From Nemertoderma westbladi (taxonomy: Eukaryota; Animalia; Xenacoelomorpha): 64,000 nt of DNA. The stretch is taken from contig JAUCBJ010002220.1 of assembly GCA_032718475.1 (NCBI GenBank), positions 1 to 64,000 on the forward strand, given 5' to 3'. Made by a program: the position numbers and the translations under genes. Below the pieces are notes generated by a model. It did not search any database. It saw only the letters and a program-made list of their open reading frames with translations, and was not told the origin of the DNA. Below, piece after piece: positions 23,201 through 49,517 of this stretch (position 1 is the first letter of the stretch; every line of letters begins with the position of its first letter).

Positions 23201-23236
23201 AAAAAAATCAGAGGATATTTTGATAAATTATTGCTG
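5208..23236. repeat. ~415-bp satellite array, left block, with a ~2690-bp higher-order repeat (6 monomers plus one ~200-bp deleted monomer)
   Basis: The monomer recurs every ~415 bp. The diagnostic deletion junction ctgagaa|ccccaagg occurs at ~7012, 9703, 13224, 16602, 19292 and 21151. Confidence 0.97.
15639..16323. mobile_element. PIF/Harbinger-like MITE (685 bp)
   Basis: TIRs GGGGCCGTCCAAGTATGACGTC... and ...GACGTCATACTTGGACGGCCCC; 3-bp TSD TAT; no transposase; interrupts one satellite monomer cleanly. Confidence 0.88.
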
Positions 23237-24497
23237 CAAACATTTTGACGTTAATTTAACGTTAATTTACGTTAATATTCTACCATTCCAACGTTATTTT
23301 TTAACGTGCCCTTACGTTAAATTAACGTATTATTGGCCGGGGTTACTACGTTAAAAATATACATAAATTGTACTCAAATCATACTAATTAACTCATGTCT
23401 GAAAATAACGTTAACTGCCGTATATTATGAACGTTATTTATGAACGTACCATTACGTTAAATTAACGTATTATTGGCCGGGGTTACTACGTTAAATAAAT
23501 ACGTTAAAAAAATACGTCAATAATACGTTAAAAAAATACGTCACTAATACGTTATTTGTTATTCAAAAGCATAAAAAATATCATGTTTAATTGAGATTTA
23601 CTTCATGGACCACAGCGGTAGTTACTTGGTGGACCTGCAAGGGACTGGGGGGGATCTAACACTAACCTACACAGCCTACGCCTACGCCCCTACACCTACT
23701 ACACCTTAGGAGTGGAACCTTCAATGCATTTAGGCAAAATAAATATCGGATTATTTCTGAGAAGAATTATGATGACTTTTGATCAATTGCTAAGAAATTT
23801 GTTTAGATTTATATAAAATACTATCACATACCTATTTGGCCTCTACGTTAGATAAATCATTTGATTAAATTATTTAAATTTATTAGTTATCAAACAATTT
23901 AATTGATAATTTAAAATTAAATTATAGGAAATTAATAACTATTTAGAGTCTGACGTCATTTAACGTTAGACTTGCGTTTTTTGCAGACGCTGGGGGTAGA
24001 ATGAAACCAATTTATTGTTTGTAATAACTACACTGTATATCAAACCTCACCAATAATTTAACGATGGTAACGAATGGTGTTTATTTTATTTAGCCACTCA
24101 CACTGAATAAACGTAGTGCCGTTTTTATATAAATAATTGGCAGTCGAAAATGAACTTATTTAACAAATTTTGCCCGGAATAAAAAATAATTCAAAGCTAA
24201 ATTTACGGTATATCGGTAATATAAATCGGCATAACGTACTGTACTATATACAGTATTAACTAAATAAACTTCAATAAACAAAAATATGAGAAATAAACAA
24301 AACTACAGTATAAAAAAATAATACCAAAATTGAAAGAAATATTCAATATTGCATCGTTATAAATTCAATAATAATGCACATCCACATCACAATAATATAT
24401 TGAAGAACATGTAAACTAATTAATATTGCAGTTACAGTAGTTATATTATCGGAGTACAAAATAATGACCTGCAGTTACAGTAGTTAGTTATATTATG

Positions 24498-25780: not shown

Positions 25781-25830
25781 ATAAGACATTAGAAAACGTT
25801 TGTTCTAAGTTATTTTTATAACATTATTTG

Positions 25831-27749
25831 TATAGAATTATATTCCCTAAATGCCGTGGATTTTCAAAATTTTATTTTATTCGAATTAACTTTGTAAAGA
25901 TTGCTTTGAGTTCTCATTAGTATTGGTTCTATCTATTATGCATCTATCGATCAAGTGGTTCAGTAGCTCAGTTGGTAGAGCGTTGGAAATTATATGTGTA
26001 GTAGGTATCGAGTTCGAATCCTAGTAAGTGCGAATTATTTTTTGTGCAGAATTTCAACTCATTTAAATTAACCGCTACAAATTAATTGCATTTGTCTGTA
26101 CCAATAAGGCTGTAGTTATTTGATTGTAACCAATGTCGTGCAAGTTATATATTAGCTGGACCAATAAGCTATCTTTAAAACCTCGTTAGAACCCATAGAA
26201 CAATCGAGAATTTTCTCGATTGATTGCAGCACAAATTTAGTATATAAAGGTGCGATTCGTTCATTAGTTATCTCTCAATCTACTCAAGCCATCATTCACT
26301 TTCTGTCTTATTTCAGATTACATTGTTTATTGTATAATAGTTATTATATCTTTTGTAATAAAAGTCAGAAATACTAGTCACATCTCAGCCCTTTTCTATC
26401 TGTTTTACTATGGTTTCACTACGGTGAACAAACTCAGGGACAGGATGGCCGGCTAGAGATCGGGCCGCAGCAATGAACGGGAACATCACGGGAATGTAGA
26501 CGAGAGACAACCCGCAATACCATCTTAGAGTTATTCGCCCATCGCCTGAAAGGTTAGACAGCGTTCGATCCTTGCTACCTAAGTGTAAGACCAAAAGATC
26601 AAAGGTAGACGTAGTGACACGCTGCAAGCCTAAAATTACATCATAGGGACTGTACTGTCTTGATTCAGGGAAAACCGCAGTAGACCTTCATATTCCTACG
26701 GGGGGAGAGGGAGAGAGAGCAGATACTAGTACGCAGATAGGACGTAGGCACACCGGTACAAGGCATACACATTGGTTAGGGTGCAGCAAACTGTACGCTT
26801 AACTCTTGCTAAGTACAGGTGTGTGTGCGACTATTTGCCGTACAACGGTGTCCGTTACATCAGAACTTGTAGGCTAGGGGGGTTGCTGTGTTTTCACCTG
26901 AATTGGGATTGTACCGTTCAGGCGGTAGGGCAGTTTACGCTAGGCGCAAATAAATTGAGGCTATCAGGGATACTAACATCTACCGTGTCCCCGCCAACGC
27001 CCTAATAGGAAGTTACCCGGACTACCTGGGTGACTAAAATTCTAGATAGGAGCCAGGATAGCTATTAGTACCCGTACGCCTACAGTAGTAAACTAACACA
27101 TCTCTTCTTAGTATCAGGGACCTGGTACCTAAAATTGCCGAATTCTGGGCGTAGTATTAACCTTATGCCTGAATTTGAGTCCTGGAAATACGCAAGAGGG
27201 GAAGGAACCTTATCATTCGTGAGTATTGGACCTACAAGTTATAAAATTAGAATATTCGTAAAATGCACACCGTACCCAGTAATTATATATGTGAAGGAGC
27301 AAAACTGCTTTGACCGTTCAGAATTAACACATGCGCGTTAAAATTTATTTACACCTCGAAATATATAAAATTAACTTTCGTCCTTACTGCACTTTGCTCG
27401 CTAGTTAGACATCTCCAAATCTGCTCTATACCTAGCTAGCGTCCTTTTGCCCAACCATATAAATCACACCGCGGCAAAGTATACGAGCCTCTTAGTCCGT
27501 CAGTGAGTCAGCCTGATTTTAGGATTCGCTGCGCGGGATTTTGTTTTATCGAAGTTTGTCTGCTCGTAGACTGTTTTCTGCCTCACCGGTTAAAAGAGAT
27601 CGATACTGCAATATATTCGCTTACTTGGGGTTTACTGTTTTGGTGAGAAGGTCGGATTTATGATTTGATTTACAAACTTTACAGTAGGATATTGCAGGTA
27701 TTGTTACCGTCTCTTCCGATAGTAGGAATAGGCGTATCTCTCCAATTTA
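25831..27749 (+). repeat. 5' LTR of element B
   Basis: Matches 40471-42389 with only one difference seen by eye (27379 C vs 42019 T). CCAAT boxes at 26101-26165, TATATAAA at ~26241, AATAAA at 26357 and 26949. Confidence 0.95.
25957..26043 (+). ncRNA. tRNA-derived Pol III cassette (A box, B box, T6 terminator) inside the 5' LTR; not a functional tRNA
   Basis: GGTTCAG-TAGCTCAGTTGGTAGAGCG (D arm, A box) ... GAGTTCGAATCC (B box) ... TTTTTT. Acceptor and anticodon stems do not pair well. Confidence 0.75.
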
Positions 27750-27760
27750 GTAGGAATATG
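27750..27760 (+). promoter_or_regulatory. Putative non-tRNA primer-binding site GTAGGAATATG
   Basis: Abuts the 5' LTR end, lacks TGG, and is the exact reverse complement of CATATTCCTAC at 26689-26699. Confidence 0.5.
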
Positions 27761-28562
27761 TTTTACTGAACTACGGTTCGGTAGGACTAAAGTTATTTGA
27801 AAATTTTGTATTTTGAGGTAAAAATTTATATTTGATTAGCTAAGTGCTAATTTTTTGAAATAAAATTTGATTTGAACCGCGTGTAAAATATTTTTGGAAT
27901 TGAATACCGGTGTTTAAAAGGGTTTAAATACCATATTGTACCGGTACAAATTTTTTCGTAAAAGTAAAACCTAACTCTTTTGTTTTTTCAGGATTCAGAA
28001 CTCATTTCTAGACTGTAACGGGAGCAAGACCGTGTTTAGCAAGTTTGGGAGATAGATAACTCAACAACTTTGGTTGAGAAAATCGCGTTTCGTCCGCAAC
28101 GTTAAAAACGGAAAGGTTCACGTTCGGTTTGTATCTGGGAATCTGTTTTTCTGGAGAATTATTGGAGTGGGTGAGTTCGAAAAGTTGCATAAATAAGTTA
28201 GGCATTACCGTATTAGTTAAAAATTATTGTGGGTTCCACTGTCTCAAGTATTTATGCATTCCGTACGATTTCTTTGTTCATTGCTGAATTAGTCCGTATT
28301 ATTGTATTTAATTTACCTTTTGATAACGCATATCGTTATCCGATTTATTTGTTGTAAAATTGGCCGCTAGGCTAATTTTATTATATACTTATTCCGTGAC
28401 ATTTATTTGCTGTAAAATTGGCCGTTTTAGGCTAATTTTATCCATCTGCTATAAAATCAGCCGGTAGGCTAATTTTATAAGACTGTAATTAGTACCGTTT
28501 AGATATAAATACGGTAAACTCGATACTTTGACACTCACTTCACTTGACTTACAACTACCGAA

Positions 28563-31500
28563 ATGAGTGACAAACAAGACTATACGAAGAATACACAAAC
28601 CGACTATGACTCATGTGACGCGGATAAGTCAGCAGCGGAAGAACAACAGGGGAAGACTCGCGAGCCTACCGAACCTACACCGTGTGCGTCACCAGTACAT
28701 CCAACGGGAGTACCGGATGCCGTAGTACGAGGCGACGGCAGGACCGAGGACTTTCTAACTGTTCCGCAACCTAGATATAGGGAAACGGAAATGGTAAGTT
28801 CAGCAGGAAGCACAGAAAGTGTGGTTAGAAGCGTCGGAGGATACATGGCGCATATAACCAGGAGCATTGGAGAAGGCCAACGCATATTAGACGGGTTGAC
28901 CGCTCCGATGTCTCGATTCGAGTTCTACACCCTCCAGGTTAGAGTACAGAGTAAAGTATATAAGTCCGTAGATAATCTAGTTGGCCTACAAGATCTAGCT
29001 AGACAGAGACAGGACATGGATACTCAACTTAGAATCCTTGAGAAACTAATGATCACTAGAGAGAAACTGATTCAGTTTAAGTCGACGATTAGACAGATAC
29101 AACAGGAACAAGCGGACCAGTTGTTAGGTGAGTCAGTTTCGGACGAATTATTACAGCCCGAGGAAGAACAGGAACTGTACCGACTGGATGGACAATTGAA
29201 ACACCTGACGGATCACTTGCGCATGTGCGGCGAAGACGTCGGGGATTGGGAAACCGTGCCGGAGGCTACGAGGGAAACTTCACTCGCACAAATCGAATCG
29301 GCACCGGGAATACTAAATCAATCGCTGGTAAGTATTCGTAGCGAAATCTGCGAGGGAAGTATGGTCACGTCAGAAGTTGCTCGACAACAGCAAGAATTCT
29401 GCCGACAACGACGAGAAATGGAGGAACAAGCTCAACTTCTAGTGATGCAGGCAGCAGTAGAGGAAGAGAAGCTACGCGTTGCGAATATAGCGAGAATCTC
29501 TCATCTACAGGAACAAGCTGAATTAGAAGCAGCCGAAGTAGAAAGGTTAGAGCGAGACATTGCCCGACAAGCGGCAGCGGCAGCGGCCGAGTCAGAGCGA
29601 CAAGCGGCAGCGGCAGCGGCAGCGGCCGAGTCAGAGCGACAAGCGGCAGCGGCAGCGGCGGAATTAGAACGAGACAGGTTAGTTTCGGAAGCACGGGCCG
29701 AAATGAAAACACGGCAAATAAAGGCTCAATCCGCTATACGACAAGCAGAGTTTGAGGCGCAACAACGACAAACGGAACAACGAGAGAAGACAGCTAAACT
29801 TCATTTCGAACTCGAGAAGAAGGCGAGAGAATTAGCGAACGCCGAGGAAGATCTGGATCAAAAGGCCCGCGATCGATCGATGAGATCTCGAGACGGACAT
29901 GACTTGGACCAGATAGAGGTAAGAAATCGCCAAATTCAGGAACGAAAGAAGGAAGGAAGCGTAGGAGCACCCGGACGGGAACGACAATTAGTAAAGGACT
30001 TGTGTCAACGATTCCCACAGGTAACTCATATGTTTGCACCGGTTACGACTAAGGAACCTGTTTCGATTGCGGGTAGTAGTAACATTTCTCCTATCCATGG
30101 TGCGACGGAACACAGGTTTGTTATTCCGGACAAGTTTACACCGCCAAGAGCAACGTCGTCGCCTATTCCGAAAGTCAAGGTAAGTAACCCACCGATTACA
30201 GATCGTAGTAGTTTATTAGTCGGACCTGCACTACTGACGACAAAACAGGTGAGTCCACCTTTGACACCTAAACCCGTTACGCACTACGATTACCCAATGA
30301 CATTTCGGCCTACAAGGCCTTTGGATTCAAACGCGGTCGTCCGACCACCAGTTCAGTTTACGTCGCAATCTACGACTTCGAGGAAGACTTGTGAGCCTAC
30401 CGAACAACGGAGAACAGTGGAGACGCGACCGTTCAACCAGTTTACATCGCAATCTACGACTTCGAGGAAGACTTGTGAGCCTACCGAACAACGGAGATCA
30501 GTGGACGATGTTCCGAAACGAGCCGTTAGAATTCGAACGACGCAACGGACGCGAGCACGTCGACCACCATATCCAGATGATAGTAGTACTTCAAGCGAAT
30601 CGGATTACCCGAAACGCGAGGTATTTAGAACAGGGGCGGCCGACGAATATAAACGCGAGCGTTCAGACAACTCCTTTGCAGACAATCCTCCACAGAATAC
30701 ACCAACACAGAAGGCGTTACAACCAACGAACGCAATTAGTACACAACAGTTCGCCGACATTCTGCGACCAGTTGTCAATAAGTTGGCTCAGATCGAGGAA
30801 CGTCTGGAGGAAGTTCAAACCGACAGTTCGAGAAATTCCGAATTCGAACACAATAGACACCCGAAGGGACCACAAAGACCGGTACCTTCAAACCCCACAT
30901 CGTATCAGGGAAAAGCGCCAAGAAGGGAGAACATCAACCAGGTTACCAACCAAGGACGCGAAACTCTGAACGTTGCCGAGGAGATAGCGAAATTCGCAGC
31001 CAGACAGGGATTGCCGGTACAACAACCACCGAAGTTCTCCGGTAGCTCAAAACACTGGCATACCTTCGTAGACTATATTGAATCCCAGATCGCCGTGTGC
31101 GCCTTTACATCACGAGAGAAGTTCAATTACTTGCTCCAAACGTTGTCAGGAGAACCTAAACGTTTGGCGGAGACTTTCGTCGGTGTACCAGACGCTTTCG
31201 AACTAGCGTACGATCGTTTGACTTCGATATACGGAGGTACAGTGAGTATGGCCAGGTCAGTAATAGAAGAACTCTGTAAGGGAGGGGCTATCACTAAACC
31301 CGTCGACTTACTAAAACTGGCTGACGAGATTAAGAACGCTATCACTACCTTAAGATCAATTGGACAACTTGATTACGGGAATACACCTACAGTCCTATTA
31401 AAGATAATAGGACGACTCCACCATCGACTTCGTCGGGAGTGGAGGAAGGTCGAATATCAGCGAGAGGAGCGAGGAGGATTCCTAAAATTAGAAGATGTGT

Positions 31501-34500
31501 ACCTTTTAATATCCAGGGAGGCGGTAGTAGAAACTCGATCTAACTATACCGACCAGCACATCGTGGCAGAAGGGATCACACTGCCATCCTCCAACCGACA
31601 AAAACCCCAGACAACATCCACAAAGACGGCCACTTACGCCACACCGACGGAATCACGACAATTCTCAGACGGTAATAGAGTATCTGCGCCCATTGGGACG
31701 AAACAGACGAGACAGCAACTCAGCGCTGACTTCAACGGCTGCCAATACTGCGAACATTTAGGTAAGCGGTATATTGGTCACAAGTTACGAGGTTGTCGAC
31801 AATTTCGCGAGTTGAACTCAGAAGAACGACGGCTGCAGATACGGCCACTGGACTCTTGTTGGCGGTGTACGCGACACGGACACGTCCGTAAGGATTGCCC
31901 AAATACCGACACTTGTCCATCCTGTGGACGCAACCACGACGGTCTGCTCCACACAGACAGCCACACGCCGACGAAACGCTTCGCCAGGGAACACCCGGAA
32001 GCAGCAGCGAGATGTGATGCGGCTTACCGAAAACGAGAATCGAAAACGACTCCGACTTTCGTGACCCATATAGAGGATTGCTTTTCAGAACAATCCGGAT
32101 CGTCGGACGAAGAATCAGACGACGACGAATATTCTAATGGAGACGAACAACCGTCAATCGCGCTCCTGACCACTGACCAACTGAAGGGATTCAGTGTAAT
32201 CCCGATTAAAGTTACTGGCACAAAAGGGAGTAAGAGGATTTACGCGATTCTAGACTCAGCCTCATCTCACAGTTACGTGGATGAAAAGATAGCTGACGTC
32301 GTAACGGATCTCAGACAAGGTAAACACGTCAGTTATACAGTAAGTAGTATGCACGGCCAGCGTGCAATACCAGTGACACGAGTTAAGTTGGACTTAGACT
32401 CTCTTCTTCCAAAATCGCAACACAGCGAGAGGGAGAGGTCTTTGTTGCCCTTTAGAGATCTAACCTTTGCGGCCACGAAGGACTTTAGTAACCTACTAGG
32501 TCCAGTGCCGGAACAATCTCTGGAGGACCGTAAGTATTTCAGACACCTTGGTGTACCCGAATGTCCTGTCAATTATAGATCGGTAGCAATGCTGATCGGG
32601 ACGGACCAATTCAACCTACATCAGGTGTGGGAAACCAGACCATCGGCAGTTGTAGCAGGAAACGCATACGCCTGCAGAACGCCGATAGGGTGGTATACTC
32701 GAGCGCCTGTGCGCACACTAGACGTAAGTGACGAGGAAGACGACGTACAGAGTACATGTAGTTTATTGACTACAAACTCAATTCATTCCTTTTCACACGA
32801 CGTGAACCATACTACGCTACAGTCGACAAAACATCACAGACGTGTAACTAGTATGATAAGTCACAAGGAGCAGCTAACCCACAAGGTGAGTTTAGAACTT
32901 GGGGAGAAGACGAATCAGCTAGAGATTCCATCGACGACAGATGATAGGCTTGCGAGTCTACCTACCCCAATAACTTCAACAGTGCCCATCGATATCGACG
33001 ATGACGCGTTGAAAATTCATCAGTTGGAACAAGCCGCCTTGGACAAAGAATTAACGGAGAAGACTATCAGGTGGTTAGAACAAGATACAGCTGAACCTGG
33101 TAGCTACGACCCTTGTATGTCGGAACAGGAGAAACAATCTCTAAAGATCATGGAGGATACTATCCGACAGACGGAGGACGGACATTACGAGGTGGGTATG
33201 TTATGGCGTAGCCAAAGTCCTAAACTTATAAATAACTACCCACTGGCTTTAAGACGTCTACACTCAATCCGACAACGTCTATTAAAGGACGAGAAAGCCC
33301 ATCTGCAGTACAACACTCAGATGAAGACATATTTGACAAAGGGATACGCTATCCGAATGACTAACCCGGAGCGAGTGACAGACCAGACGTACTACTTGCC
33401 ACATCACTATGTGAGACATCCCGACAAACCAGATAAAGTACGCGTAGTCAATGACTGTGCGGCTCTGTTTGAGGGAATGTCCCTCAATAGTGAATTGATG
33501 GATGGACCGAACATGAATAATTATCTTATGGGGGTGATTATGCGCTTCCGTCAGCGTCAAGTAGCCTTTACTTGCGACGTTGAAGCGATGTTTCACCAAG
33601 TGAAAGCGTTAGAGCGAGACAGAGACAGTTTGCGGTTTCTCTGGTATCCGGAAGGGGACTTAAGTCTACCACCAGCGACTTACCAAATGCAAGTTCGCGT
33701 TTTCGGTGCCAGAGACAGCCCAAATTGTACGATGTACGCCTTGAAGCAAGCCGCTAGAGATCAGAAACATCTGTATGACCCAGAGATAATTAGAATTGTA
33801 GAACGTGACTTTTACGTTGATGACGGTTTACAAAGTTGCGACACAGTAGAACGTGCTACAACAGTAGCACATCAATTACGGGACTGCTTGGCGGGCGGAG
33901 GTTTTAACCTCACCAAATTCGCCTCAAACAGTGCCGAATTAGTTGACTCATTCGGAACTACTGAGCGTGGAGGTGGTGACATAGACCTAGAGTTCGAACC
34001 ACTACCGACGACTAAGGTGTTGGGGCTCTTTTGGGACCCAAACACAGACAACTTTCGAGTGAAGGTGAGACTGGACAGTCAAGGAGACACACTGACCAAG
34101 AGATCATGCTTGTCAAAGTTGAGCCGATTGTTCGATCCGTTAGGATTCATCAGTCCAGTAATACTGCAAGCTCGCATTTATATGCGCAGTATATGGAAGG
34201 ATGGACTAACATGGGACGAGCCGATCTCATCAGACCAAGTGGACTTATGGAAGACCTGGGAGGCGGAATTGTCTTCGTTAGAGGATTATTCCATACCCAG
34301 GGTTTACTTTCCATTACAGAGTACATTTCCTGACAACTTGGAACTACACTGTTTTTCCGACGCCAGTGACAACGGGTTTGGTGTGGCAGCGTATTTGCGC
34401 AGACAAGTAGAATCAGACGAGTTCGATGTTTCGCTCATTACTTCCAAGGCTAAGACCATGCCTACTAAGTATATGACGACACCACGAGCCGAGCTACAAG

Positions 34501-37205
34501 CCGCGACCCTGTCAACCACCATCGTGAACCTCATACAGACAGAACTACAGTCGAGTTTACAGATATTTTATTGGACTGACGCGACGTTGGTTTTATTTTA
34601 CATAAACAACGACACACTCGAATTCAAGACATTCGTAGCTAACCGTCGCGCAGAGATTCTAGACCGTTCGATAAAAGAGGATTGGCGACATTGTCCCGGA
34701 CCACAAAACCCAGCTGATATTGCGTCGCGAGGAATGATGCCTGAGGAATTCTGTAAACCGGAGAACAAAGAGTTTTGGCAACACGGACCCCAGTTCTTGC
34801 AGAAATCGACACAAGATTGGCCTCCGTTATACGACAACAAGTCCAACACCATTCCTAAGGACGCCGAAATCAAGAAACCAAAAAAGGGGAAGACAAAGAA
34901 AAAGACAACGGCGGCAAAACTCAAGAAAAAACCGAAGGCGAAATGGAAGGATATAACTTCAAAGGTCAAGAGAGGAAGACTTGCGAGCCTTTCTACACCA
35001 GACATATTGCCAGACGGTCAACCAGACACGTTACCAGACGGTCAACCAGACATGTTACTAGACAGCCAACCAGACATTTTGCCAGACATATCACAAAATG
35101 TTCCATCAGACGCTAGTAACACACTGACAAACAGTAAAGCCGCAGTTTCCCTATTGGAGCGGCCTTCTATTGACAAACAACCAGATACGTTACCAGACGT
35201 ATCGCCAGACACATTACTAGACAGTCGACTAGACATTAGTAATGTATCGACTAACAATAAAGCCGCAGTCTCCCTATTGGAGCGGCCTTGTATTGACAAA
35301 CTACCAATTTTGACACACTTGAGCAACCATAAGCATGGTGAAACCTCATGTATTGCAGATGTGGGTAGTACCTACGCTAATGTAAATACAGGTGTTACTT
35401 TGCGCTCAAGAGACATACCGAACTTACAACCTGTGGTGAGACCTGGGATTAATGTCGGCAGAAAAATAAGTTTACCGAAACCTGCTGACCCCATAGAGTT
35501 CAAACCACCATTAACGATCGACTTACAAAGTACCGACAATCAAGGTAAGAAGACGAAGAAGGACAAATTACTTGTAGACCCGGATGGATCAACAGTCAAC
35601 AAGGGAATACTTACCGGCGGACCCGTGGGCCCTTCTAGTAATTCAAAACCTTCCAAAATCTCCATTGACTTACCTGATGACGTCACAAATACTTACGTCG
35701 ACCGATTTGTAAACTTAACAGACTCTTGGTCGAACGCTTGCCGAAAATTAGCGTGGATTGTACGTTTCGTACAATACGTTAAAGGCAAACGTGACTTTAC
35801 ACGTCGACTTACATTGGCTGAGATTGACAGGTGTGAGATTAAATTAATTCGCCATTACCAACTGCGATATTTCGCGCGCGAATTCACATCCATAAATCAA
35901 GGTCAACCAATCAAGTCGTCACCGATACTGAGTTGGAGTCCGATTATTTATAATGGCTTAATTTGTCATAAATCTCGGCTTCAAAACATTGACTTTAACA
36001 CAAACTTTAGGTACCCAATAATAATACCGCAACACCACGAACTACAACGTGCAATGATACTGGACGCACATTTACATCTGAAACACGCTGGAAGACACCA
36101 CTGTCTTTCCTACTTACGTACTAGATTTGTATTAATTAGACCCAGTAAAGCATTGAGTTCAGTGACACGTACGTGTATTATTTGTAAAAAGGTACATTCT
36201 AGAATAGGTACCCAAGAAATGAGTGAACTACCACAAGCACGACTTCAAGCATTCAGACCACCTTTTACAGAGACTGGAATTGATTGCTTTGGTCCCATAC
36301 ATACTAAACGTGGACGTATACTAGTAAAACGCTGGGGACTGATTTTCACATGTATGTCCAGTAGGGCAGTTCACATTGAACGTGTGATGGATCTTTCCAC
36401 CAACGCGTTTATACTAGCACTGCGGCGATTTATCGCTAGACGCGGACTAGTAAAATGCTTGTACTCAGACCAAGGGACAAACTTCGTTGGTGCTCGGAAT
36501 GAGATCGCTAGAGCCTTTAAGAAATTAGATCACGATCAAATCTCGAACGAACTACAACCTCACAAGATTGTTTGGAAGTTTAATCCTCCAGATAGTCCTT
36601 GGAGAGGCGGAGTCTGGGAGAGATTGATTAGATCTATAAAAACGGCCATGGCAAAGGTCATTCCAGTAAACCACATATTAACAGACGACCAACTGACAAC
36701 ATTGTTTGTTGAAATCGAGGCAATACTAAATACTAGACCAATAGTATTAGTACCCGATGACAAACAATCTCAGTTCGCTTTAACACCAGCACACCTGCTT
36801 ATGCAGGCACCGACAACTTTGACACCTATTTCTATTCCAATAGAAAGCGACAGTTACGGTAGAAAAGCGTGGAAAATCACGCAACTACTGGCTAACAAAT
36901 TCTGGGAAATATGGCAAAACCATTATTTGCCCTCTATTTCTGCCAGAACAACATGGTACAATAACACCCGCGCATTAAAGCCGGGAGATCACGTGCTGTT
37001 GGCAGAAGTGAATCTGAAAAGACGCTTCTGGATAACAGGTGTCATTTTAGCCACACATCCATCTATGGATGGAGTGACAAGAACTGTGACGGTACGGACA
37101 ATTGACGGTCGTACAGTAGACAGACCGACTCAACGTCTCGTACTTCTTGAAGAGACTCGTAACGAGTCTGGAGACTACAAATCTCCACCTAATACTAGTA
37201 AATAA
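28563..37205 (+). CDS. gag-pol: BEL/Pao Gag-Pol polyprotein, 2880 aa (Gag, 3 zinc knuckles, aspartic protease, RT, RNase H, integrase)
   Basis: PPKFSG gag motif; CWRCTRHGHVRKDC and CPSCGRNHDGLLH; LDSAS protease; YYLPHH, KVRVVND and FYVDD in RT; LHCFSDAS RNase H; HHCC, GIDCFGP, SDQGTNF and GGVWERL in integrase; PR-RT-RH-IN order. Confidence 0.97.
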   Translation: MSDKQDYTKNTQTDYDSCDADKSAAEEQQGKTREPTEPTPCASPVHPTGVPDAVVRGDGRTEDFLTVPQPRYRETEMVSSAGSTESVVRSVGGYMAHITRSIGEGQRILDGLTAPMSRFEFYTLQVRVQSKVYKSVDNLVGLQDLARQRQDMDTQLRILEKLMITREKLIQFKSTIRQIQQEQADQLLGESVSDELLQPEEEQELYRLDGQLKHLTDHLRMCGEDVGDWETVPEATRETSLAQIESAPGILNQSLVSIRSEICEGSMVTSEVARQQQEFCRQRREMEEQAQLLVMQAAVEEEKLRVANIARISHLQEQAELEAAEVERLERDIARQAAAAAAESERQAAAAAAAAESERQAAAAAAELERDRLVSEARAEMKTRQIKAQSAIRQAEFEAQQRQTEQREKTAKLHFELEKKARELANAEEDLDQKARDRSMRSRDGHDLDQIEVRNRQIQERKKEGSVGAPGRERQLVKDLCQRFPQVTHMFAPVTTKEPVSIAGSSNISPIHGATEHRFVIPDKFTPPRATSSPIPKVKVSNPPITDRSSLLVGPALLTTKQVSPPLTPKPVTHYDYPMTFRPTRPLDSNAVVRPPVQFTSQSTTSRKTCEPTEQRRTVETRPFNQFTSQSTTSRKTCEPTEQRRSVDDVPKRAVRIRTTQRTRARRPPYPDDSSTSSESDYPKREVFRTGAADEYKRERSDNSFADNPPQNTPTQKALQPTNAISTQQFADILRPVVNKLAQIEERLEEVQTDSSRNSEFEHNRHPKGPQRPVPSNPTSYQGKAPRRENINQVTNQGRETLNVAEEIAKFAARQGLPVQQPPKFSGSSKHWHTFVDYIESQIAVCAFTSREKFNYLLQTLSGEPKRLAETFVGVPDAFELAYDRLTSIYGGTVSMARSVIEELCKGGAITKPVDLLKLADEIKNAITTLRSIGQLDYGNTPTVLLKIIGRLHHRLRREWRKVEYQREERGGFLKLEDVYLLISREAVVETRSNYTDQHIVAEGITLPSSNRQKPQTTSTKTATYATPTESRQFSDGNRVSAPIGTKQTRQQLSADFNGCQYCEHLGKRYIGHKLRGCRQFRELNSEERRLQIRPLDSCWRCTRHGHVRKDCPNTDTCPSCGRNHDGLLHTDSHTPTKRFAREHPEAAARCDAAYRKRESKTTPTFVTHIEDCFSEQSGSSDEESDDDEYSNGDEQPSIALLTTDQLKGFSVIPIKVTGTKGSKRIYAILDSASSHSYVDEKIADVVTDLRQGKHVSYTVSSMHGQRAIPVTRVKLDLDSLLPKSQHSERERSLLPFRDLTFAATKDFSNLLGPVPEQSLEDRKYFRHLGVPECPVNYRSVAMLIGTDQFNLHQVWETRPSAVVAGNAYACRTPIGWYTRAPVRTLDVSDEEDDVQSTCSLLTTNSIHSFSHDVNHTTLQSTKHHRRVTSMISHKEQLTHKVSLELGEKTNQLEIPSTTDDRLASLPTPITSTVPIDIDDDALKIHQLEQAALDKELTEKTIRWLEQDTAEPGSYDPCMSEQEKQSLKIMEDTIRQTEDGHYEVGMLWRSQSPKLINNYPLALRRLHSIRQRLLKDEKAHLQYNTQMKTYLTKGYAIRMTNPERVTDQTYYLPHHYVRHPDKPDKVRVVNDCAALFEGMSLNSELMDGPNMNNYLMGVIMRFRQRQVAFTCDVEAMFHQVKALERDRDSLRFLWYPEGDLSLPPATYQMQVRVFGARDSPNCTMYALKQAARDQKHLYDPEIIRIVERDFYVDDGLQSCDTVERATTVAHQLRDCLAGGGFNLTKFASNSAELVDSFGTTERGGGDIDLEFEPLPTTKVLGLFWDPNTDNFRVKVRLDSQGDTLTKRSCLSKLSRLFDPLGFISPVILQARIYMRSIWKDGLTWDEPISSDQVDLWKTWEAELSSLEDYSIPRVYFPLQSTFPDNLELHCFSDASDNGFGVAAYLRRQVESDEFDVSLITSKAKTMPTKYMTTPRAELQAATLSTTIVNLIQTELQSSLQIFYWTDATLVLFYINNDTLEFKTFVANRRAEILDRSIKEDWRHCPGPQNPADIASRGMMPEEFCKPENKEFWQHGPQFLQKSTQDWPPLYDNKSNTIPKDAEIKKPKKGKTKKKTTAAKLKKKPKAKWKDITSKVKRGRLASLSTPDILPDGQPDTLPDGQPDMLLDSQPDILPDISQNVPSDASNTLTNSKAAVSLLERPSIDKQPDTLPDVSPDTLLDSRLDISNVSTNNKAAVSLLERPCIDKLPILTHLSNHKHGETSCIADVGSTYANVNTGVTLRSRDIPNLQPVVRPGINVGRKISLPKPADPIEFKPPLTIDLQSTDNQGKKTKKDKLLVDPDGSTVNKGILTGGPVGPSSNSKPSKISIDLPDDVTNTYVDRFVNLTDSWSNACRKLAWIVRFVQYVKGKRDFTRRLTLAEIDRCEIKLIRHYQLRYFAREFTSINQGQPIKSSPILSWSPIIYNGLICHKSRLQNIDFNTNFRYPIIIPQHHELQRAMILDAHLHLKHAGRHHCLSYLRTRFVLIRPSKALSSVTRTCIICKKVHSRIGTQEMSELPQARLQAFRPPFTETGIDCFGPIHTKRGRILVKRWGLIFTCMSSRAVHIERVMDLSTNAFILALRRFIARRGLVKCLYSDQGTNFVGARNEIARAFKKLDHDQISNELQPHKIVWKFNPPDSPWRGGVWERLIRSIKTAMAKVIPVNHILTDDQLTTLFVEIEAILNTRPIVLVPDDKQSQFALTPAHLLMQAPTTLTPISIPIESDSYGRKAWKITQLLANKFWEIWQNHYLPSISARTTWYNNTRALKPGDHVLLAEVNLKRRFWITGVILATHPSMDGVTRTVTVRTIDGRTVDRPTQRLVLLEETRNESGDYKSPPNTSK

Positions 37206-38052
37206 TTAGGAGTTTACAAATAGATTTCCACGTACCTGTACACCGTAGTAAGGACAGCGGTAGAATTCCATTGTCTTTATATGTGAACATTGAGGGTAGT
37301 ACCCTTATGTGTCACATAGGAGCGGGATTTGTAGGTATAAGAAATGGAATTCTACTTGGAACTCACAATATTGAGACATTTTCGAAATTTTAGACAATCC
37401 ATTTGGATTTGAAAAATTTTTAAAAATTTCTCCAGTGAATAGATTTCAGGGTACAGTCGGGTGGAACTTAAAATTAGAGAAACAAGTAGATGGAAGACTT
37501 GCGAGCCTTTCTTAAAATTTTAATTAAATTTTACACGGTCTTGATTCAATAAGTTACGTCAAATAGACTCCCCTATATTTATTACTAATTCTTGATTGCT
37601 TATTTTCTGATAATAGTTTGGGATCAAAAAATGAGTATTTTAGACTCACGGCCAGTTTAGCCCAAATTCGTTTTTACTTCGGCAAAAATTTTAGATAAGA
37701 AGCAGCGTGTCATTAAAGAAACCTTAGATCTTAGGCTATGGGTAGGAGGTTAGAGCGTTGTCGAAGCCCAAAGGGCAGACGAAACTCTCACGTCTCCTCA
37801 CAACTAACCACAAACTCTGTTGTATTCCCTCTAGTAGTAATGATTATGTAACTACACCCTAATTATGGAGAAAGGGATATAAGGAGAGCCGAGATGGGGA
37901 TATGATATCCAAGAGGAAGCGGCAGCTTCATTCGAACGATTTGGAGCAAAAGATTACACTATATTCGGTATAAAGGAATTATCAGAAAGTACAGCGAAGC
38001 TCGCAAAGACAGCAATGCCTTTACTCGAGCAGGATTTAGTATATTTCGAGAC

Positions 38053-38931
38053 GTGTATCTTCGCTGTGCGGGATCTCTTATCGAAAGACCATCTATGTTT
38101 ACATTGTTACCCTATGAAGGAGAACGTATCGTGGAAATTACGGATGAATCACGGCAGACGCGCGCGCCTATCGGTCACCTTGGTGATGAATTCGAAGTAA
38201 CTACTACGATCGCCGACGATCCTTTAGAGGAACTTCTTGAGATAGAAAGGAACCTCCCGAAGAAATCTCAGACGGAGATTCGACAACTTGAAGCAACAGA
38301 TGCTATAGTTTGTATACAACCTTCAGAAACCTACCAACCCATAGACCCAGATGATTACGATTATAGTATGGGAGGAAGCGCTCGACCGATTGGAGATCTT
38401 ATATACGAACGAGTGTGGTACCCTGCTAATACGATGTGTAGTAAATGTGGCGTCGCTGGACATCATATGGCAAAGTGCAGTGGAAAGCACATTACTACGA
38501 CTCAGCTAATCTGTGGATGGTGTGGGGATCAAGGGTCTCATACCTTTTATACTTGCTGGAGATTTATGGCTCAGTGTACTTACTGCAATATAAAGGGACA
38601 TCGAGCATCTGAATGCCAACTGAGAGATATACCTTATGAACACGAATCTGTAAAACTCGTGAGGAAGTTATTTGATGAGTGGGAAGATTTAGCCGACGAA
38701 CATGTATCGGCACAGAGAAGACGGTTTCCGATGAGAGCGCATCTCGGATTTTGGGCGGTAAATCCCCAGACGATGATGTCGGAAGGATACATCTCCGCTA
38801 TGCCCCAATATGACGAACTTATCGAGGTTGTTGATATTTTGCCCCACGACAGCGGATTCCGAGTGGTGCGCGAGTATCTGTTACAGATTCACCCAGATAA
38901 CAAAACACGTGGAATTTTCAGAAAGTCGTAA
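38053..38931 (+). CDS. Accessory ORF with three CCHC-type zinc knuckles (true start uncertain; frame open from 37906)
   Basis: CSKCGVAGHHMAKC, CGWCGDQGSHTFYTC and CTYCNIKGHRASEC; lies between pol and the 3' LTR. Confidence 0.7.
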   Translation: MYLRCAGSLIERPSMFTLLPYEGERIVEITDESRQTRAPIGHLGDEFEVTTTIADDPLEELLEIERNLPKKSQTEIRQLEATDAIVCIQPSETYQPIDPDDYDYSMGGSARPIGDLIYERVWYPANTMCSKCGVAGHHMAKCSGKHITTTQLICGWCGDQGSHTFYTCWRFMAQCTYCNIKGHRASECQLRDIPYEHESVKLVRKLFDEWEDLADEHVSAQRRRFPMRAHLGFWAVNPQTMMSEGYISAMPQYDELIEVVDILPHDSGFRVVREYLLQIHPDNKTRGIFRKS

Positions 38932-39164
38932 ATCGTATCACGTATGGTGAATTTGATCGTTTCCGAACCGAAAAGCGGAATAAATGAGCTTGGTTAACCG
39001 TCGCATGGGCGTACCGAGCCGCGTTTTACCATAAACGTATACGAGCGAGCGTATTCGAGGAAGAAGAGGTCCTAGAGGCGACGAATATATCAGCCACTCC
39101 GGTTGCGCCGTCTGCACGTCACCCTCGGGAGGACGGGCAGGGTAGGATCATACGGGTCCAGAAA

Positions 39165-39566
39165 GTGGGCCAACAATTGAAGAAAATTATTAATGTGGAA
39201 GAACGCAAGGGAGTTGAGCCGACTATTCGAGTTACTCGGGATACGGTATCACTTCCAAGAGAACCGGTAGGAGGATCGGGACATACACCAGCTGATCAAC
39301 AGGGGGCGCAAGCTACTCTTGGGTCTGCGTCGTCCACTCCTCGCGCGTTCCCAGACGTTCTACCAACTGTAGCGACAACTGATCGGTCACGAGGAATTGG
39401 TCGAGGTTTTGGGATGCCAAATAGACGAATTTGCGAGGAAATAGTCGCACCGTCTCTCAACGTCCCAAGTAAACCAGTGACTCGCCCCACCAGTCCCATA
39501 TCGCGAGCAAAGTCACCTGTGCGCAGTTTTCGAGGACGCGGCAGGGCTCGATCTACTAAGCGATAA
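39165..39566 (+). CDS. Second accessory ORF or exon, Pro/Ser/Arg-rich with RG-rich C-terminus (frame open from 38988)
   Basis: GC-rich, coding-like composition; ends RSFRGRGRARSTKR just before an AT-rich 3' UTR. Confidence 0.45.
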   Translation: MGQQLKKIINVEERKGVEPTIRVTRDTVSLPREPVGGSGHTPADQQGAQATLGSASSTPRAFPDVLPTVATTDRSRGIGRGFGMPNRRICEEIVAPSLNVPSKPVTRPTSPISRAKSPVRSFRGRGRARSTKR

Positions 39567-39689
39567 AAGGGAGGGCAAGGGTGGACGGAAGACTCGTGAG
39601 CCTTTCTTATGATTTGTGATTTATTTGAATTATATGTTTTATATTTAGAAAGTTTTGTATTCTGAAAGGGACTCATATTTAGTAAAAAC

Positions 39690-40240
39690 TTATATTTTAT
39701 ATTTGTGCTTATTCCAAACTTATGCAATTTGTATTGTTCCGAATTTATGAAATTTAGAAAGTTTATATTTAGAAGGAACTTATATTTGAAAGATTTATGT
39801 TTCATATTTGAAGATGCAAAGGAGTTTATATTATTCTAAACTTATGCAGTTTATATCTATATTTAGTAAGACTTATATTTGTAAGAATTTATATTTTATA
39901 TTTGTGATTATTCCGAACTTATGCAATTTATATTATTCCGGACTTATGCAATTTATATTGTTCCGAATATTATGCAATTTATATTTTATAAGCAGTATTT
40001 GTATTTACAGTGAAATTGAAAGTTTTATAGATAGAAAATTTGTGCTCAGAAAGACTCATATTTGTAATTATTCCGAACTTATGCAATCTACATTTAGGTA
40101 CGAAAGTATTTGTAATTACTTGAATTTATGCAATATTTGAGATGCAATAGTAGATGGAAGACTCGCGAGCCTTTCTTATTGTTTTCATTTATTTGTATTT
40201 GTAATTGTTTGAATTTATGCAATATTGAGATGCAATAGAT
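39690..40240. repeat. AT-rich degenerate repeats (ttccgaacttatgcaattta) in the element B 3' UTR
   Basis: ttatgca and ttccgaa recur many times. Confidence 0.7.
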
Positions 40241-40470
40241 TTATATTGGTGAATTTAATTTAGATTTATATTGTACTTACTTAGTAAAGCCTTAAATACG
40301 TAAAGTTTGAATTTGTAATTATTTTGTATCGAATCATTACGTAGAAAGGAAGTATCGTTTGAAATTTAATTGTAAATATGTAAGTACGCCCTAAGTATTC
40401 TATAGTTTGATTGATTATTGGTGAAAACCGTATATTTTATGCACGATAATATCCTGTTTTCATGGAGCGG

Positions 40471-42389
40471 TATAGAATTATATTCCCTAAATGCCGTGGA
40501 TTTTCAAAATTTTATTTTATTCGAATTAACTTTGTAAAGATTGCTTTGAGTTCTCATTAGTATTGGTTCTATCTATTATGCATCTATCGATCAAGTGGTT
40601 CAGTAGCTCAGTTGGTAGAGCGTTGGAAATTATATGTGTAGTAGGTATCGAGTTCGAATCCTAGTAAGTGCGAATTATTTTTTGTGCAGAATTTCAACTC
40701 ATTTAAATTAACCGCTACAAATTAATTGCATTTGTCTGTACCAATAAGGCTGTAGTTATTTGATTGTAACCAATGTCGTGCAAGTTATATATTAGCTGGA
40801 CCAATAAGCTATCTTTAAAACCTCGTTAGAACCCATAGAACAATCGAGAATTTTCTCGATTGATTGCAGCACAAATTTAGTATATAAAGGTGCGATTCGT
40901 TCATTAGTTATCTCTCAATCTACTCAAGCCATCATTCACTTTCTGTCTTATTTCAGATTACATTGTTTATTGTATAATAGTTATTATATCTTTTGTAATA
41001 AAAGTCAGAAATACTAGTCACATCTCAGCCCTTTTCTATCTGTTTTACTATGGTTTCACTACGGTGAACAAACTCAGGGACAGGATGGCCGGCTAGAGAT
41101 CGGGCCGCAGCAATGAACGGGAACATCACGGGAATGTAGACGAGAGACAACCCGCAATACCATCTTAGAGTTATTCGCCCATCGCCTGAAAGGTTAGACA
41201 GCGTTCGATCCTTGCTACCTAAGTGTAAGACCAAAAGATCAAAGGTAGACGTAGTGACACGCTGCAAGCCTAAAATTACATCATAGGGACTGTACTGTCT
41301 TGATTCAGGGAAAACCGCAGTAGACCTTCATATTCCTACGGGGGGAGAGGGAGAGAGAGCAGATACTAGTACGCAGATAGGACGTAGGCACACCGGTACA
41401 AGGCATACACATTGGTTAGGGTGCAGCAAACTGTACGCTTAACTCTTGCTAAGTACAGGTGTGTGTGCGACTATTTGCCGTACAACGGTGTCCGTTACAT
41501 CAGAACTTGTAGGCTAGGGGGGTTGCTGTGTTTTCACCTGAATTGGGATTGTACCGTTCAGGCGGTAGGGCAGTTTACGCTAGGCGCAAATAAATTGAGG
41601 CTATCAGGGATACTAACATCTACCGTGTCCCCGCCAACGCCCTAATAGGAAGTTACCCGGACTACCTGGGTGACTAAAATTCTAGATAGGAGCCAGGATA
41701 GCTATTAGTACCCGTACGCCTACAGTAGTAAACTAACACATCTCTTCTTAGTATCAGGGACCTGGTACCTAAAATTGCCGAATTCTGGGCGTAGTATTAA
41801 CCTTATGCCTGAATTTGAGTCCTGGAAATACGCAAGAGGGGAAGGAACCTTATCATTCGTGAGTATTGGACCTACAAGTTATAAAATTAGAATATTCGTA
41901 AAATGCACACCGTACCCAGTAATTATATATGTGAAGGAGCAAAACTGCTTTGACCGTTCAGAATTAACACATGCGCGTTAAAATTTATTTACACCTCGAA
42001 ATATATAAAATTAACTTTTGTCCTTACTGCACTTTGCTCGCTAGTTAGACATCTCCAAATCTGCTCTATACCTAGCTAGCGTCCTTTTGCCCAACCATAT
42101 AAATCACACCGCGGCAAAGTATACGAGCCTCTTAGTCCGTCAGTGAGTCAGCCTGATTTTAGGATTCGCTGCGCGGGATTTTGTTTTATCGAAGTTTGTC
42201 TGCTCGTAGACTGTTTTCTGCCTCACCGGTTAAAAGAGATCGATACTGCAATATATTCGCTTACTTGGGGTTTACTGTTTTGGTGAGAAGGTCGGATTTA
42301 TGATTTGATTTACAAACTTTACAGTAGGATATTGCAGGTATTGTTACCGTCTCTTCCGATAGTAGGAATAGGCGTATCTCTCCAATTTA
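40471..42389 (+). repeat. 3' LTR of element B
   Basis: Direct repeat of 25831-27749, preceded by the short purine-rich GGAGCGG. Confidence 0.95.
40597..40683 (+). ncRNA. tRNA-derived Pol III cassette, 3' LTR copy
   Basis: Identical to 25957-26043. Confidence 0.75.
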
Positions 42390-42459: not shown

Positions 42460-44037
42460 CTGGTTCCTTTATGGATAAATCACTGGGCGAGTTACTGACA
42501 TTAGAAAGTTATCCAGTATCAGTTAAACTAAACACCCTACTTTCACAGGAAGGAAAAGAACTTCAACAGACGTCTTGTCTAATTAGTTCTATAATGCCAG
42601 ATAGTAATATTACATTACATGCCAGTGAACTACTATTAATTCAAAATTTGCATTTGAACTATACTAGACCGTCCCAATGGTCGTTAGATCGTCTACCTTA
42701 TTTGAAGAATTTAAATTTGGAATATCCAACGGTGGACGTCAATCGGATTTCTATGCTAATTGGCTTGAATAATCCACGTGCCCATCGCGTCTATAAGACT
42801 GTATGGGGACCAACCCCTTACGACGAAGAAAATAATCCACACGCGATTAAGACTCCCTTTGGATGGACAATAGTGGGTCCAATCACTGACTGTAGAATAA
42901 AACCCTCACTGCCTACATCGAGTATAAAACCAGTTGTGGAAACAAACCCCGATATAGATCTAGAAATACATACCTGCGTGCCAATGGTAAGTGAGAAGTA
43001 TGACTTTGTAGAGCAGATGGAGAATGTGGAGCAGCCATGCACATGGCGTTTACAGAATGATGGCGAACATGATGTTTTCCATAACGAAGTCGCAACAATA
43101 GACATAAATCATGTACAATGTTGTCCATGGAGACTTGATACGAGTACAGGGGACGAAGCAACCCATGATTTGTTAAAGAAATTTTTTGATTCGGAAGCAT
43201 TTGTTTGTCCTACCCGCATTGTCAATAAATCTATACAAGATCATAAATGCAAGAAAATTTTGAAAGAAAGCACTCGTTTCATCAATGGACACTACCACGT
43301 AGAAATGTTATGGCTTGATAAAGACAAACCACTGATTAATAATAAATATTTAGCCCTGACCCGCTTAAGATGGATAAAGCGTAAATTGATTAAAATGCCT
43401 GACGAACATAATAAATACCAAGCAATACTAGACGATTATGAAAAAAAGGGTTATGTCAGACGCCTTTCCTTGGTGGAAAAGTTGTTACCGGATGGTCCTA
43501 GGAAATATTACCTCCCAACTCACCCCGTATGGGATCCAAATAAACCAGGTAAGTTACGCATTGTACTTAATGCTGCAGCGCAATATAAAGGGATGAGTTT
43601 AAATTCAGAGCTCATGGAAGGACCCAATATATACACATCTATTGTTGATGTCCTCCTTAAGTTTCGTCAACATCGTGTGGTGTTTGGATCAGACGTGGAA
43701 GGTATGTTTCACCAAGTATGGACATTCGATAGAGATTCGCAATCCCAGAATATTATTTGGTGGGAGGGGGACACTGAGCCAAGTGAGTTACAGGACTTAA
43801 TTGTGTATCAAATGCTAGTGCATGGGTTCGGGAAAAAGGATTCTCCATGCGTTGCAACGCACGCATTGCGTCAGTCGGCGTACGACCATCGTGAAGAGTA
43901 CCATCGTTCTGTTATAGAAGCGATTACAAGAGCATTTTACGTAGACGACTGTTATACTGGAGCAGAAACTGTAGATGAGGCAGTTAGATTAGCCCATGGT
44001 ATCACCAATTATTTAAAAATGGGGGGGTTTAATTTAA
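42460..44037 (+). pseudogene. pol: Element C pol, N-terminal fragment (protease remainder and RT)
   Basis: GSFMDK, MLIG, KTPFGW, YYLPTH, KLRIVLN, FYVDD and MGGFNL; the frame is broken at TTAA by the insertion. Confidence 0.9.
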
Positions 44038-46834: not shown

Positions 46835-46838
46835 TTAA

Positions 46839-49426: not shown

Positions 49427-49517
49427 AAATTAATAATTATTTAGTAAAATAAATAATAATAAATACACTGGGACTGAGTGTTGTATGTGTGATGAACTAA
49501 ATACATTGTTTGGAGTA

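Follow-up and report, generated by a model that had tools for sequence, protein, structure and literature searches.

Why does one short quasi-palindrome recur eight times through a single retrotransposon of Nemertoderma westbladi? We analyzed a window of 64,000 nt (contig JAUCBJ010002220.1, positions 1 to 64,000, forward strand) that contains this retrotransposon, element B, together with parts of two further elements, A and C. With a probability of about 0.5, we propose that the repeated unit is a candidate site in double-stranded DNA at which a dimeric factor would bind and act on the chromatin of the element, a reading derived from sequence comparison.

An earlier note on this DNA had placed a 17-bp motif at eight positions, and its coordinates hold: the seven forward copies are exact, and the inverted copy, with 2 mismatches, lies at 32946-32962. 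Under a null model of dinucleotide shuffles, the 17-mer gave a mean of 0.02 matches per shuffle, and eight matches were reached in 0 of 100 shuffles. In full, the repeated unit spans 20 bp and forms a dyad, GRWAGRCT-YGYG-AGYCTWYC (GRWAGRCTYRYRAGYCTWYC), which all eight copies match without a mismatch, so that the inverted copy 4 still fits the pattern (Table 1). When read as inverted, copy 4 has 3 differences from copies 1 and 8, compared to 5-8 from the exact copies when read directly. The TTCT extension ascribed to the last four copies is present, its first three letters being part of the dyad. All eight exact copies lie within element B, with none in the remaining 51 kb of the window; the number expected by composition in the 12.7-kb interior is 1e-5, a significance that is overstated because the pattern was derived from the same copies. 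The motif was, as claimed previously, not found in elements A and C, but this is a weak control, since of A the window covers no more than 5.2 kb at the 5' end, and C is present in fragments.

Element B is assigned by its domains to the BEL/Pao LTR retrotransposons, with a single gag-pol carrying three diagnostic families (DUF1759, Peptidase_A17 and DUF5641 above the Pfam cut-off; Integrase_H2C2 below it). There are 1882 relatives at E 1e-60 or better, with the same families among those listed, and identity to relatives over RT/RNase H is 39-44%. The gag-pol product is longer than those of the 120 relatives listed (1586-2229 aa), and for Gag residues 1-760 a comparison with 7976 candidates yielded no relative. 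The two long direct repeats share a 1920-bp match of 99.95% identity, with one internal difference and a differing first base; the 5' repeat contains a TATA-like signal (26241), AATAAA (26357) and TGG at 26411, the 3' copy starts with GG, a clear target duplication was not seen, and position 26410 may lie close to the end of the LTR proper. The observed/expected CpG ratio of element B is 1.0-1.5, compared to 0.6-0.9 in its neighbours, that is, without depletion; this is common to element A, which is motif-free in the part present, and counts against a motif-linked explanation.

Table 1. Features of element B in the window (positions in nt; str., strand)
Feature	Position	Str.	Remarks
5' long direct repeat	25829..27749	+	LTR, possibly LTR plus leader
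Candidate first leader intron (GT...AG)	26553..27991	+	loose end at 27990 in run X3 equals window 26525-26550; one contig
Candidate gag-pol intron	28171..37834	+	contains 6 of 8 motif copies
gag-pol ORF, BEL/Pao	28563..37205	+	uninterrupted, 2880 aa
Dyad copy 1	28651..28670	+	centre CGCG; at the Gag N-terminus; translated as KTREPT; aligned by 0 of 120 relatives
Dyad copy 2	30382..30401	+	centre TGTG; Gag extension; reads KTCEPT
Dyad copy 3	30466..30485	+	local duplicate of copy 2, 84 bp downstream; 68-bp match, 97%
Dyad copy 4	32943..32962	-	inverted relative to the others; protease-RT linker; sense strand reads DRLASL; relatives' coverage 0.09
Dyad copy 5	34974..34993	+	RNase H-integrase linker; reads GRLASL
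Dyad copy 6	37492..37511	+	non-coding; between pol stop and splice acceptor
Accessory ORF2	37906..38931	+	341 codons between stops; 278 aa from the first in-frame ATG (38095); three CCHC-type knuckles
Degenerate ninth copy	38153..38172	+	within ORF2; 3 mismatches, of which two mirror each other (positions 8 and 13)
Arg-rich ORF3	38988..39566	+	192 codons; sole Met in last third; coding status uncertain
Dyad copy 7	39587..39606	+	centre CGTG; 3' non-coding
Dyad copy 8	40156..40175	+	centre CGCG; 3' non-coding
3' long direct repeat copy	40470..42389	+	adjoins BEL/Pao pol fragment of element C

The motif looks to be maintained at the nucleotide level, as the earlier note had supposed, given its sharp 20-bp boundary, dyad symmetry, presence in several frames, linker placement and even spacing. 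In seven independent copies, 14 of 20 columns of the dyad are invariant, compared to 0 of 60 in the flanks, and 14 of 14 half-sites match GRWAGRCTYR, with five positions invariant. A half-site is also present in a 416-bp satellite (45 copies), where it occurs as one 8-mer per unit without a partner half and was taken as chance. Frame independence was recovered as well: three copies read KT[RC]EPT, two read [GD]RLASL and three are non-coding. An origin as a peptide repeat is ruled out by the two reading phases and the non-coding copies, the RLASL reading being present in 2 of 8 only. Local duplication accounts for copies 2 and 3 and, in agreement with the earlier statement, for no other pair; flank identity elsewhere does not exceed 7 nt per side (36 pairs), and thus segmental duplication does not explain the set. 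The copies stand about 2 kb apart, through genes and spacers alike. All five gag-pol copies lie in linkers where 0-9% of the 120 relatives align (P 0.034 for 4 of 4 independent sites), and the largest inter-site gap is 2519 bp (P 0.014 for uniform and 0.004 for linker-only placement, the statistic having been picked after the data were seen). The invariant columns, the symmetry, the sharp edges, the placement in linkers and spacers and the even spread support the reading as a DNA site.

If the dyad is such a site, a two-fold symmetric protein would dock at eight 20-bp sites along the integrated element, and this docking might keep the long element body open or otherwise aid its expression. Short copying events within the element could have spread the copies, with selection then keeping them, and the target would be DNA rather than RNA. 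Dispersed imperfect palindromes read by a dimer have a precedent in the baculovirus hr/IE1 system, which, as portrayed in the available text of the source, has imperfect palindromes throughout the viral genome that a dimeric protein reads as enhancers; the likeness is one of arrangement, and the viral repeats differ in being 28 bp long, in having a known binder and in belonging to a DNA virus of 134 kb (PMC4019511). The A6/C15 asymmetry of the dyad is constant and never drifts to symmetry, which counts against a simple homodimer site, where symmetry would be allowed. The LTR and leader of element B contain no motif copy, and activator sites would be expected there.

As for the predicted binder, we lean toward a host factor, an element-encoded protein (ORF2 via a likely spliced mRNA, or the orphan Gag extension) being the less probable of the two. 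Known sites for p53 (quarter-sites separated by 4 bp), the heat-shock element, Smad and nuclear receptors were considered and set aside on the basis of their consensus sequences. The BANP motif TCTCGCGAGA, as given in the accessible part of its source, has an 8-bp core, CTCGCGAG, that is found in copies 1 and 8; however, its flanking T and A are absent in all eight copies, intact CGCG is absent in 6 of 8, and the invariant letters of the dyad are in the arms (PMC10206803).

The zf-CCHC match of ORF2 has E 0.0013, below the curated cut-off, and six ATGs precede its first in-frame ATG. No specific relatives were found among 801 candidates; of four phmmer matches, three arose via the knuckles and one was a repeat-protein artefact. 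An Atlas search gave a best score of 0.86, a lead only, and nothing for the C-terminal part, whereas the single-sequence model (pLDDT 33) was unusable. The domain search, which gave weak zf-CCHC matches for ORF2, gave none for ORF3. The proposal that an accessory protein is the factor for the dispersed sites did not gain support: no motif-protein link emerged, ORF2 having generic CCHC knuckles and ORF3 lacking a Met near its start. Zinc knuckles usually bind single strands.

The ORF2 region probably has its own spliced mRNA, as indicated by one contig of one run (X3, the kind of which was guessed as DNA), where a GT..AG joint connects 28169/70 to 37834/35 with 29 letters on the short side; the joint was not seen in runs X1, X4 and X5, and a search of sequencing runs listed no RNA run with this DNA. 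The candidate intron has a canonical donor and a pyrimidine-rich acceptor, and its removal would likely yield a subgenomic mRNA for the accessory region. Contig depth in run X3 is higher over the accessory region, a quantity that cannot rank expression.

A more specific proposal is that an orphan zinc-knuckle protein from its own spliced mRNA recognizes a private 20-bp dyad, present every 2 kb in the element and also within the polyprotein gene, and shields or licenses only its own family, as an animal retroelement counterpart of VANC; we consider this doubtful. The VANC analogy of the earlier note fits in outline. In Arabidopsis VANDAL21/VANC21, according to the available text, a family-specific motif lies within one transposon, mostly in one orientation and beside an accessory gene, and was gained rapidly by copying, as may be the case for the dyad (PMC5735166); family-specific enrichment of this type is seen in our window. 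The details differ: the VANC motifs described there are non-palindromic, 8-9 bp long, non-coding and densely clustered in tandem repeats, whereas here 20-bp dyads stand singly, 5 of 8 in coding sequence, and the host is a retroelement (PMC5735166). Neither ORF2, with its weak zf-CCHC only, nor ORF3 matches VANC or the plant mobile domain. Spm TnpA and AtMu1 are similar in that an element-encoded factor binds family motifs and activates cognate copies; they differ in being plant DNA transposons with 8-10-bp motifs clustered at the termini, single motifs being reported as insufficient, and the available text of that preprint does not contain the word "retrotransposon" (bioRxiv 10.64898/2026.08.24.746577).

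The alternative that survives best, although we consider it unlikely, is that the motif acts in genomic RNA, either as a single-stranded knuckle site (for ORF2 or the Gag nucleocapsid) or through self-complementary contacts aligning two packaged RNAs every 2 kb, and aids export, stability or packaging. The three knuckles of ORF2, with best PDB matches, non-significant, to retroviral nucleocapsid knuckles, are consistent with this, as are the shared orientation of 7 of 8 copies and sense self-duplexes of -17 to -24 kcal/mol in 6 of 8, although pairing is weak (-8 kcal/mol) for the two copies with a TGTG centre. All eight copies have YGYG as their sense-strand centre, a sequence that preserves G-U pairing and that is constant even though G>A changes were at least as frequent as C>T in 3 of 4 runs, a hint of an RNA role; however, as few as about three independent changes may underlie this bias (P roughly 0.1). 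Conversely, a sense hairpin is not predicted in context (pair probability at most 0.18 for 7 of 8 copies), which was counted in favour of a DNA site, whereas the antisense strand folds in 6 of 8; neither the constant A6-C15 mismatch nor the A3-A18 mismatch seen in three copies is ever repaired; and Rfam gave no match. ARAGORN returned nothing. Spliced and unspliced RNA share an exon that contains two of the eight copies, and the motif is thus not a mark of the genomic RNA. The Rev/RRE analogy suggested earlier fits poorly on these two grounds, hairpin and exon. A likely choice between spliced and unspliced RNA recalls Cer1 of C. elegans, an animal LTR retrotransposon in which a Cys-rich accessory protein, CERV, is made from a spliced mRNA; CERV acts on unspliced RNA export, and a repeated cis motif is not named in the available text (PMC10309623). 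The searches for ORF2 relatives gave no match to CERV. The 17-nt SPRE core of endogenous retroviruses is another brief, conserved cis motif of LTR elements, one that acts although no RNA fold is predicted for it consistently, but it has another sequence, is 3'-biased, occurs in 378 families and is not presented, in the part of the source available, as a dyad or as multi-copy (PMC8579622).

Next in rank, and again unlikely, is the absence of any function: a quasi-palindrome that promotes template switching in reverse transcription would be copied and homogenised, surviving where insertions are tolerated. Small local repeats are abundant in element B, any tolerated insertion is expected in linkers, and the flanks show mosaic short patches, copy 6 sharing with copy 8 here and, in other family members, having the left flank of copy 5. 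The latter indicates that inter-site copying is ongoing and could keep the sites alike without selection. Joints in other members also move motif-adjacent DNA to new 3' places (40011 to 30465, 40023 to 40149, and 40184 back to 39633). Such copying does not account for homology that ends sharply at the dyad edges, without fading, for the lack of copies outside the element in 51 kb, for spacing that is evener than random also among permitted positions, or for the absence of a second recurring dyad family in A, C or the LTR; target-site duplications are absent at 7 of 7 copies tested. A miniature inserted element (micro-MITE) was rejected, as no 4-8-bp flanking repeat is present at 7 of 7 copies and the motif has no copy elsewhere in the window.

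Variation among family members was followed at copy 6, covered by 169, 54 and 8 contigs in three runs and by none on this short stretch in run X5. Changes at a frequency of at least 1% occur within the motif only at degenerate position 9 (T/C), a signal that may come in part from copy 8 contigs, while indels are found just beyond the motif, at 37487, 37489, 37491 and 37513. Among 151 flank bases, one clear substitution (37544) is listed; owing to the youth and uniformity of the family, this comparison has little power. Contigs of a relative about 80% alike align through copy 6, end at 37513 and are then unlike for 186 letters, in terms of alignment extent only. Viral contigs gave 0 matches in a motif scan and no related locus, and no distant relative with DNA was found in viral and metagenome contigs. 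There were 26 single matches in metagenome contigs; these were treated as chance, given that none of the 26 was accompanied by another copy at up to 2 mismatches and none encoded a gag-pol relative.

Another reader of the motif, that is, a host repressor or insulator, a small RNA, a recombinase or internal plus-strand DNA priming, appears highly improbable. A length of 20 nt suits a small-RNA target, and the 12 nt upstream are purine-rich (8-10 of 12) in 5 of 6 forward copies checked, but the sequence before the 3' repeat is unlike the motif, and priming needs neither an inverted copy nor a full dyad. Recombinase sites have an arms-plus-spacer shape, which the dyad resembles; however, recombinase exchange would be blocked by differing centres, which the copies have, and no joint links two copies among the 15 listed of 71.

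For plant DNA transposons it is established, as the available texts report, that transposon proteins regulate their own elements in a sequence-specific manner (PMC5735166; bioRxiv 10.64898/2026.08.24.746577). In BEL/Pao elements no such case was apparent in the open-access main texts searched, covered partly by titles and abstract openings. With one oligonucleotide the candidate DNA site could be tested directly, given that a defined 20-bp site lies beside a likely separately spliced orphan gene in a young family of many copies. An LTR element with evenly spaced sites in its coding linkers would be unusual in design, even with a host protein as the binder.

Element B is a BEL/Pao retrotransposon, with an uninterrupted gag-pol frame of 2880 aa that contains the Pfam families DUF1759, Peptidase_A17 and DUF5641. 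Gag-pol is flanked by 1920-bp direct repeats that differ by a single internal base, and this near-identity of sequence suggests a recent insertion. Identity to the closest relatives is 39-44% across RT/RNase H, and most of those with a name come from marine invertebrates, which makes an animal host likely; the numbers of contigs aligned to the interior (17,103 and 7,362 in two sequencing runs) indicate a many-copy family. An LTR of about 580 bp, ending near 26410 and followed by a leader, may make up the 1.9-kb repeat, in which case the right-hand repeat would be the LTR and leader of a truncated tandem copy.

The earlier note described a 17-bp quasi-palindrome in element B, and all eight sites, seven forward and one inverted, were found where it had placed them; eight matches were reached in none of 100 shuffles of the sequence. 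The motif is real and non-random, but its unit is longer than claimed, namely, a 20-bp dyad with the consensus GRWAGRCT-YGYG-AGYCTWYC, exact in 8/8 copies. All 14 half-sites fit GRWAGRCTYR, and the copy at 32943 differs by 3 changes from inverted copy 1 or 8, and by 5-8 from any direct copy. Apart from these copies and a degenerate ninth, there is no match at up to 3 mismatches elsewhere in the window. When recurring 16-mers and recurring dyads were searched for de novo, the motif family ranked top in the element B interior, whereas nothing was returned in its LTR or in elements A and C, in agreement with the reported absence of the motif from A and C, which lie only partly in the window.

Features of the window and associated observations
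Feature	Position	Observation
Motif copies 1-8 (starts)	28651, 30382, 30466, 32943, 34974, 37492, 39587, 40156	32943 inverted
Motif copy 9	38153	degenerate, three mismatches
Element B repeats	25829-27749; 40470-42389	right-hand repeat runs directly into element C; no clear target duplication
LTR stretch	25955-26035 (second copy near 40595-40675)	tRNA-like, A-box- and B-box-like words; no call by ARAGORN or Rfam
Element B leader, just 5' of gag	28343-28480	three short repeats with TAGGCTAATTTT; one matches motif half-site
Second frame overlapping ORF2 start	37883-38200	105 codons; protein-like in first part; no Pfam match
3' non-coding region	39631-40184	length differs between family members; joints skip or repeat DNA between copies 7 and 8
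Element A leader, AGCCTA words	most in 2570-3030	ten words; possibly own cis elements
Element A leader, palindrome	2851-2982	25 bp, near-perfect, two copies; possibly own cis elements
Satellite around elements	5190-24000; 49430-64000	416-bp unit, higher-order repeat structure
Insertion in satellite	15639-16323	30-bp inverted ends
Mutator-like transposase gene (PF20700)	44029-46843	26-bp inverted ends; nested in element C pol
Foldback-like element	58627-60224	21-bp perfect terminal inverted repeats, internal inverted arrays

With the tandem pair 30382/30466 taken as one copy, 14/20 motif columns are invariant among seven copies, versus 0/60 flank columns, which supports the proposed maintenance at the nucleotide level. 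Flank identity between copy pairs is at most 7 nt except in 30382/30466; thus, local duplication accounts for that pair only, as the earlier note had anticipated. The five coding copies fall into two reading phases, again as claimed, and all sit where 0-9% of 120 relatives align; such low coverage applies to 43% of the protein, which gives P = 0.034 when four sites are counted as independent. Neither local duplication nor protein sequence is a sufficient explanation of the motif. The largest gap between sites is 2519 bp; assessed post hoc, this has P = 0.014 under uniform placement and P = 0.004 once conserved domains are left out.

Downstream of pol lie ORF2, with three CCHC-type knuckles, and the Arg-rich ORF3. 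In sequencing run X3, a GT..AG joint connects 28170 with 37835 in one contig, whose shorter arm spans 29 letters, and a second contig connects LTR sequence with 27992. Both joints have canonical donor and acceptor sites, which points to the coexistence of unspliced and spliced RNAs as in retroviruses, on the evidence of single contigs of one run whose type is only guessed to be DNA. The first in-frame ATG of ORF2 is the seventh past the acceptor, ORF3 lacks an early Met, and the structure model of ORF2 was unusable. The proposed link between motif and accessory protein comes down to proximity, sequence searches with ORF2 having returned no relatives beyond generic knuckles.

A 20-bp dyad tolerating inversion is the usual site shape for a dimeric DNA-binding protein. 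We consider the copies candidate double-stranded DNA sites of a two-fold symmetric factor, with a probability of roughly 0.5. The hr/IE1 system is a case of dyad sites bound by such a protein and resembles element B in site shape (PMC4019511). The VANC analogy drawn earlier holds in outline but fails on motif architecture and protein family features (PMC5735166), and TnpA motif systems are likewise similar in outline and different in motif architecture and protein family (bioRxiv 2026.08.24.746577). Cer1 and, likely, element B have a spliced accessory gene in common, whereas a structured, intron-confined RNA element is not among the features that Cer1/CERV and element B share (PMC10309623). 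The BANP motif (PMC10206803) and SPRE (PMC8579622) were rejected as identities of the motif. No comparable BEL/Pao system was apparent among the papers listed in literature searches, although repeat-library entries in supplements could describe such a family.

Foremost among the alternatives, yet unlikely, is an RNA signal for the knuckles, or RNA pairing. All eight copies have a YGYG centre when read in the sense direction, despite G>A being no rarer than C>T in three of the four runs; six of the copies form stable sense self-duplexes, and single strands are the usual targets of CCHC knuckles. However, the sense hairpin is weak and, in context, not predicted for 7/8 copies, the antisense strand folds in 6/8, and Rfam gave no match. 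Two copies lie in the exon common to both RNAs, so the motif alone cannot mark genomic RNA; this and the missing hairpins also make the suggested Rev/RRE-type export analogy a poor fit. The A6/C15 asymmetry, which never varies, is a poor match for a plain homodimer and for RNA pairing alike.

Neutral copying of a switch-prone palindrome is doubtful as well. The left flank of copy 6 is like that of copy 8 here, and like that of copy 5 in most other family members; this switching indicates that short copying between sites is ongoing and counts against pure selection. The match of one X3 contig ends exactly at the final base of copy 1, suggesting that the motif also occurs beside other flanks. 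In family contigs over copy 6, position 9 is the sole motif position varying at at least 1%, with indels on both sides, and a relative ~80% alike aligns to 2 nt past the copy, then diverges; this test is weak, given a uniform family, one clear flank substitution listed and no display of that relative's letters in the motif. That the sites serve other readers is very unlikely.

CpG o/e is 1.0-1.5 in element B and 0.6-0.9 in its neighbours; element A, which is without the motif in the part present, reaches 1.19, so the CpG level does not support a chromatin role. Such a role for the candidate DNA sites is suggested by their layout and by analogy. A two-fold symmetric factor would bind the sites as double-stranded DNA, one site per linker would provide coverage of the 12.7-kb body, and the covered body may thereby stay expressed or insulated amid satellite-rich DNA.
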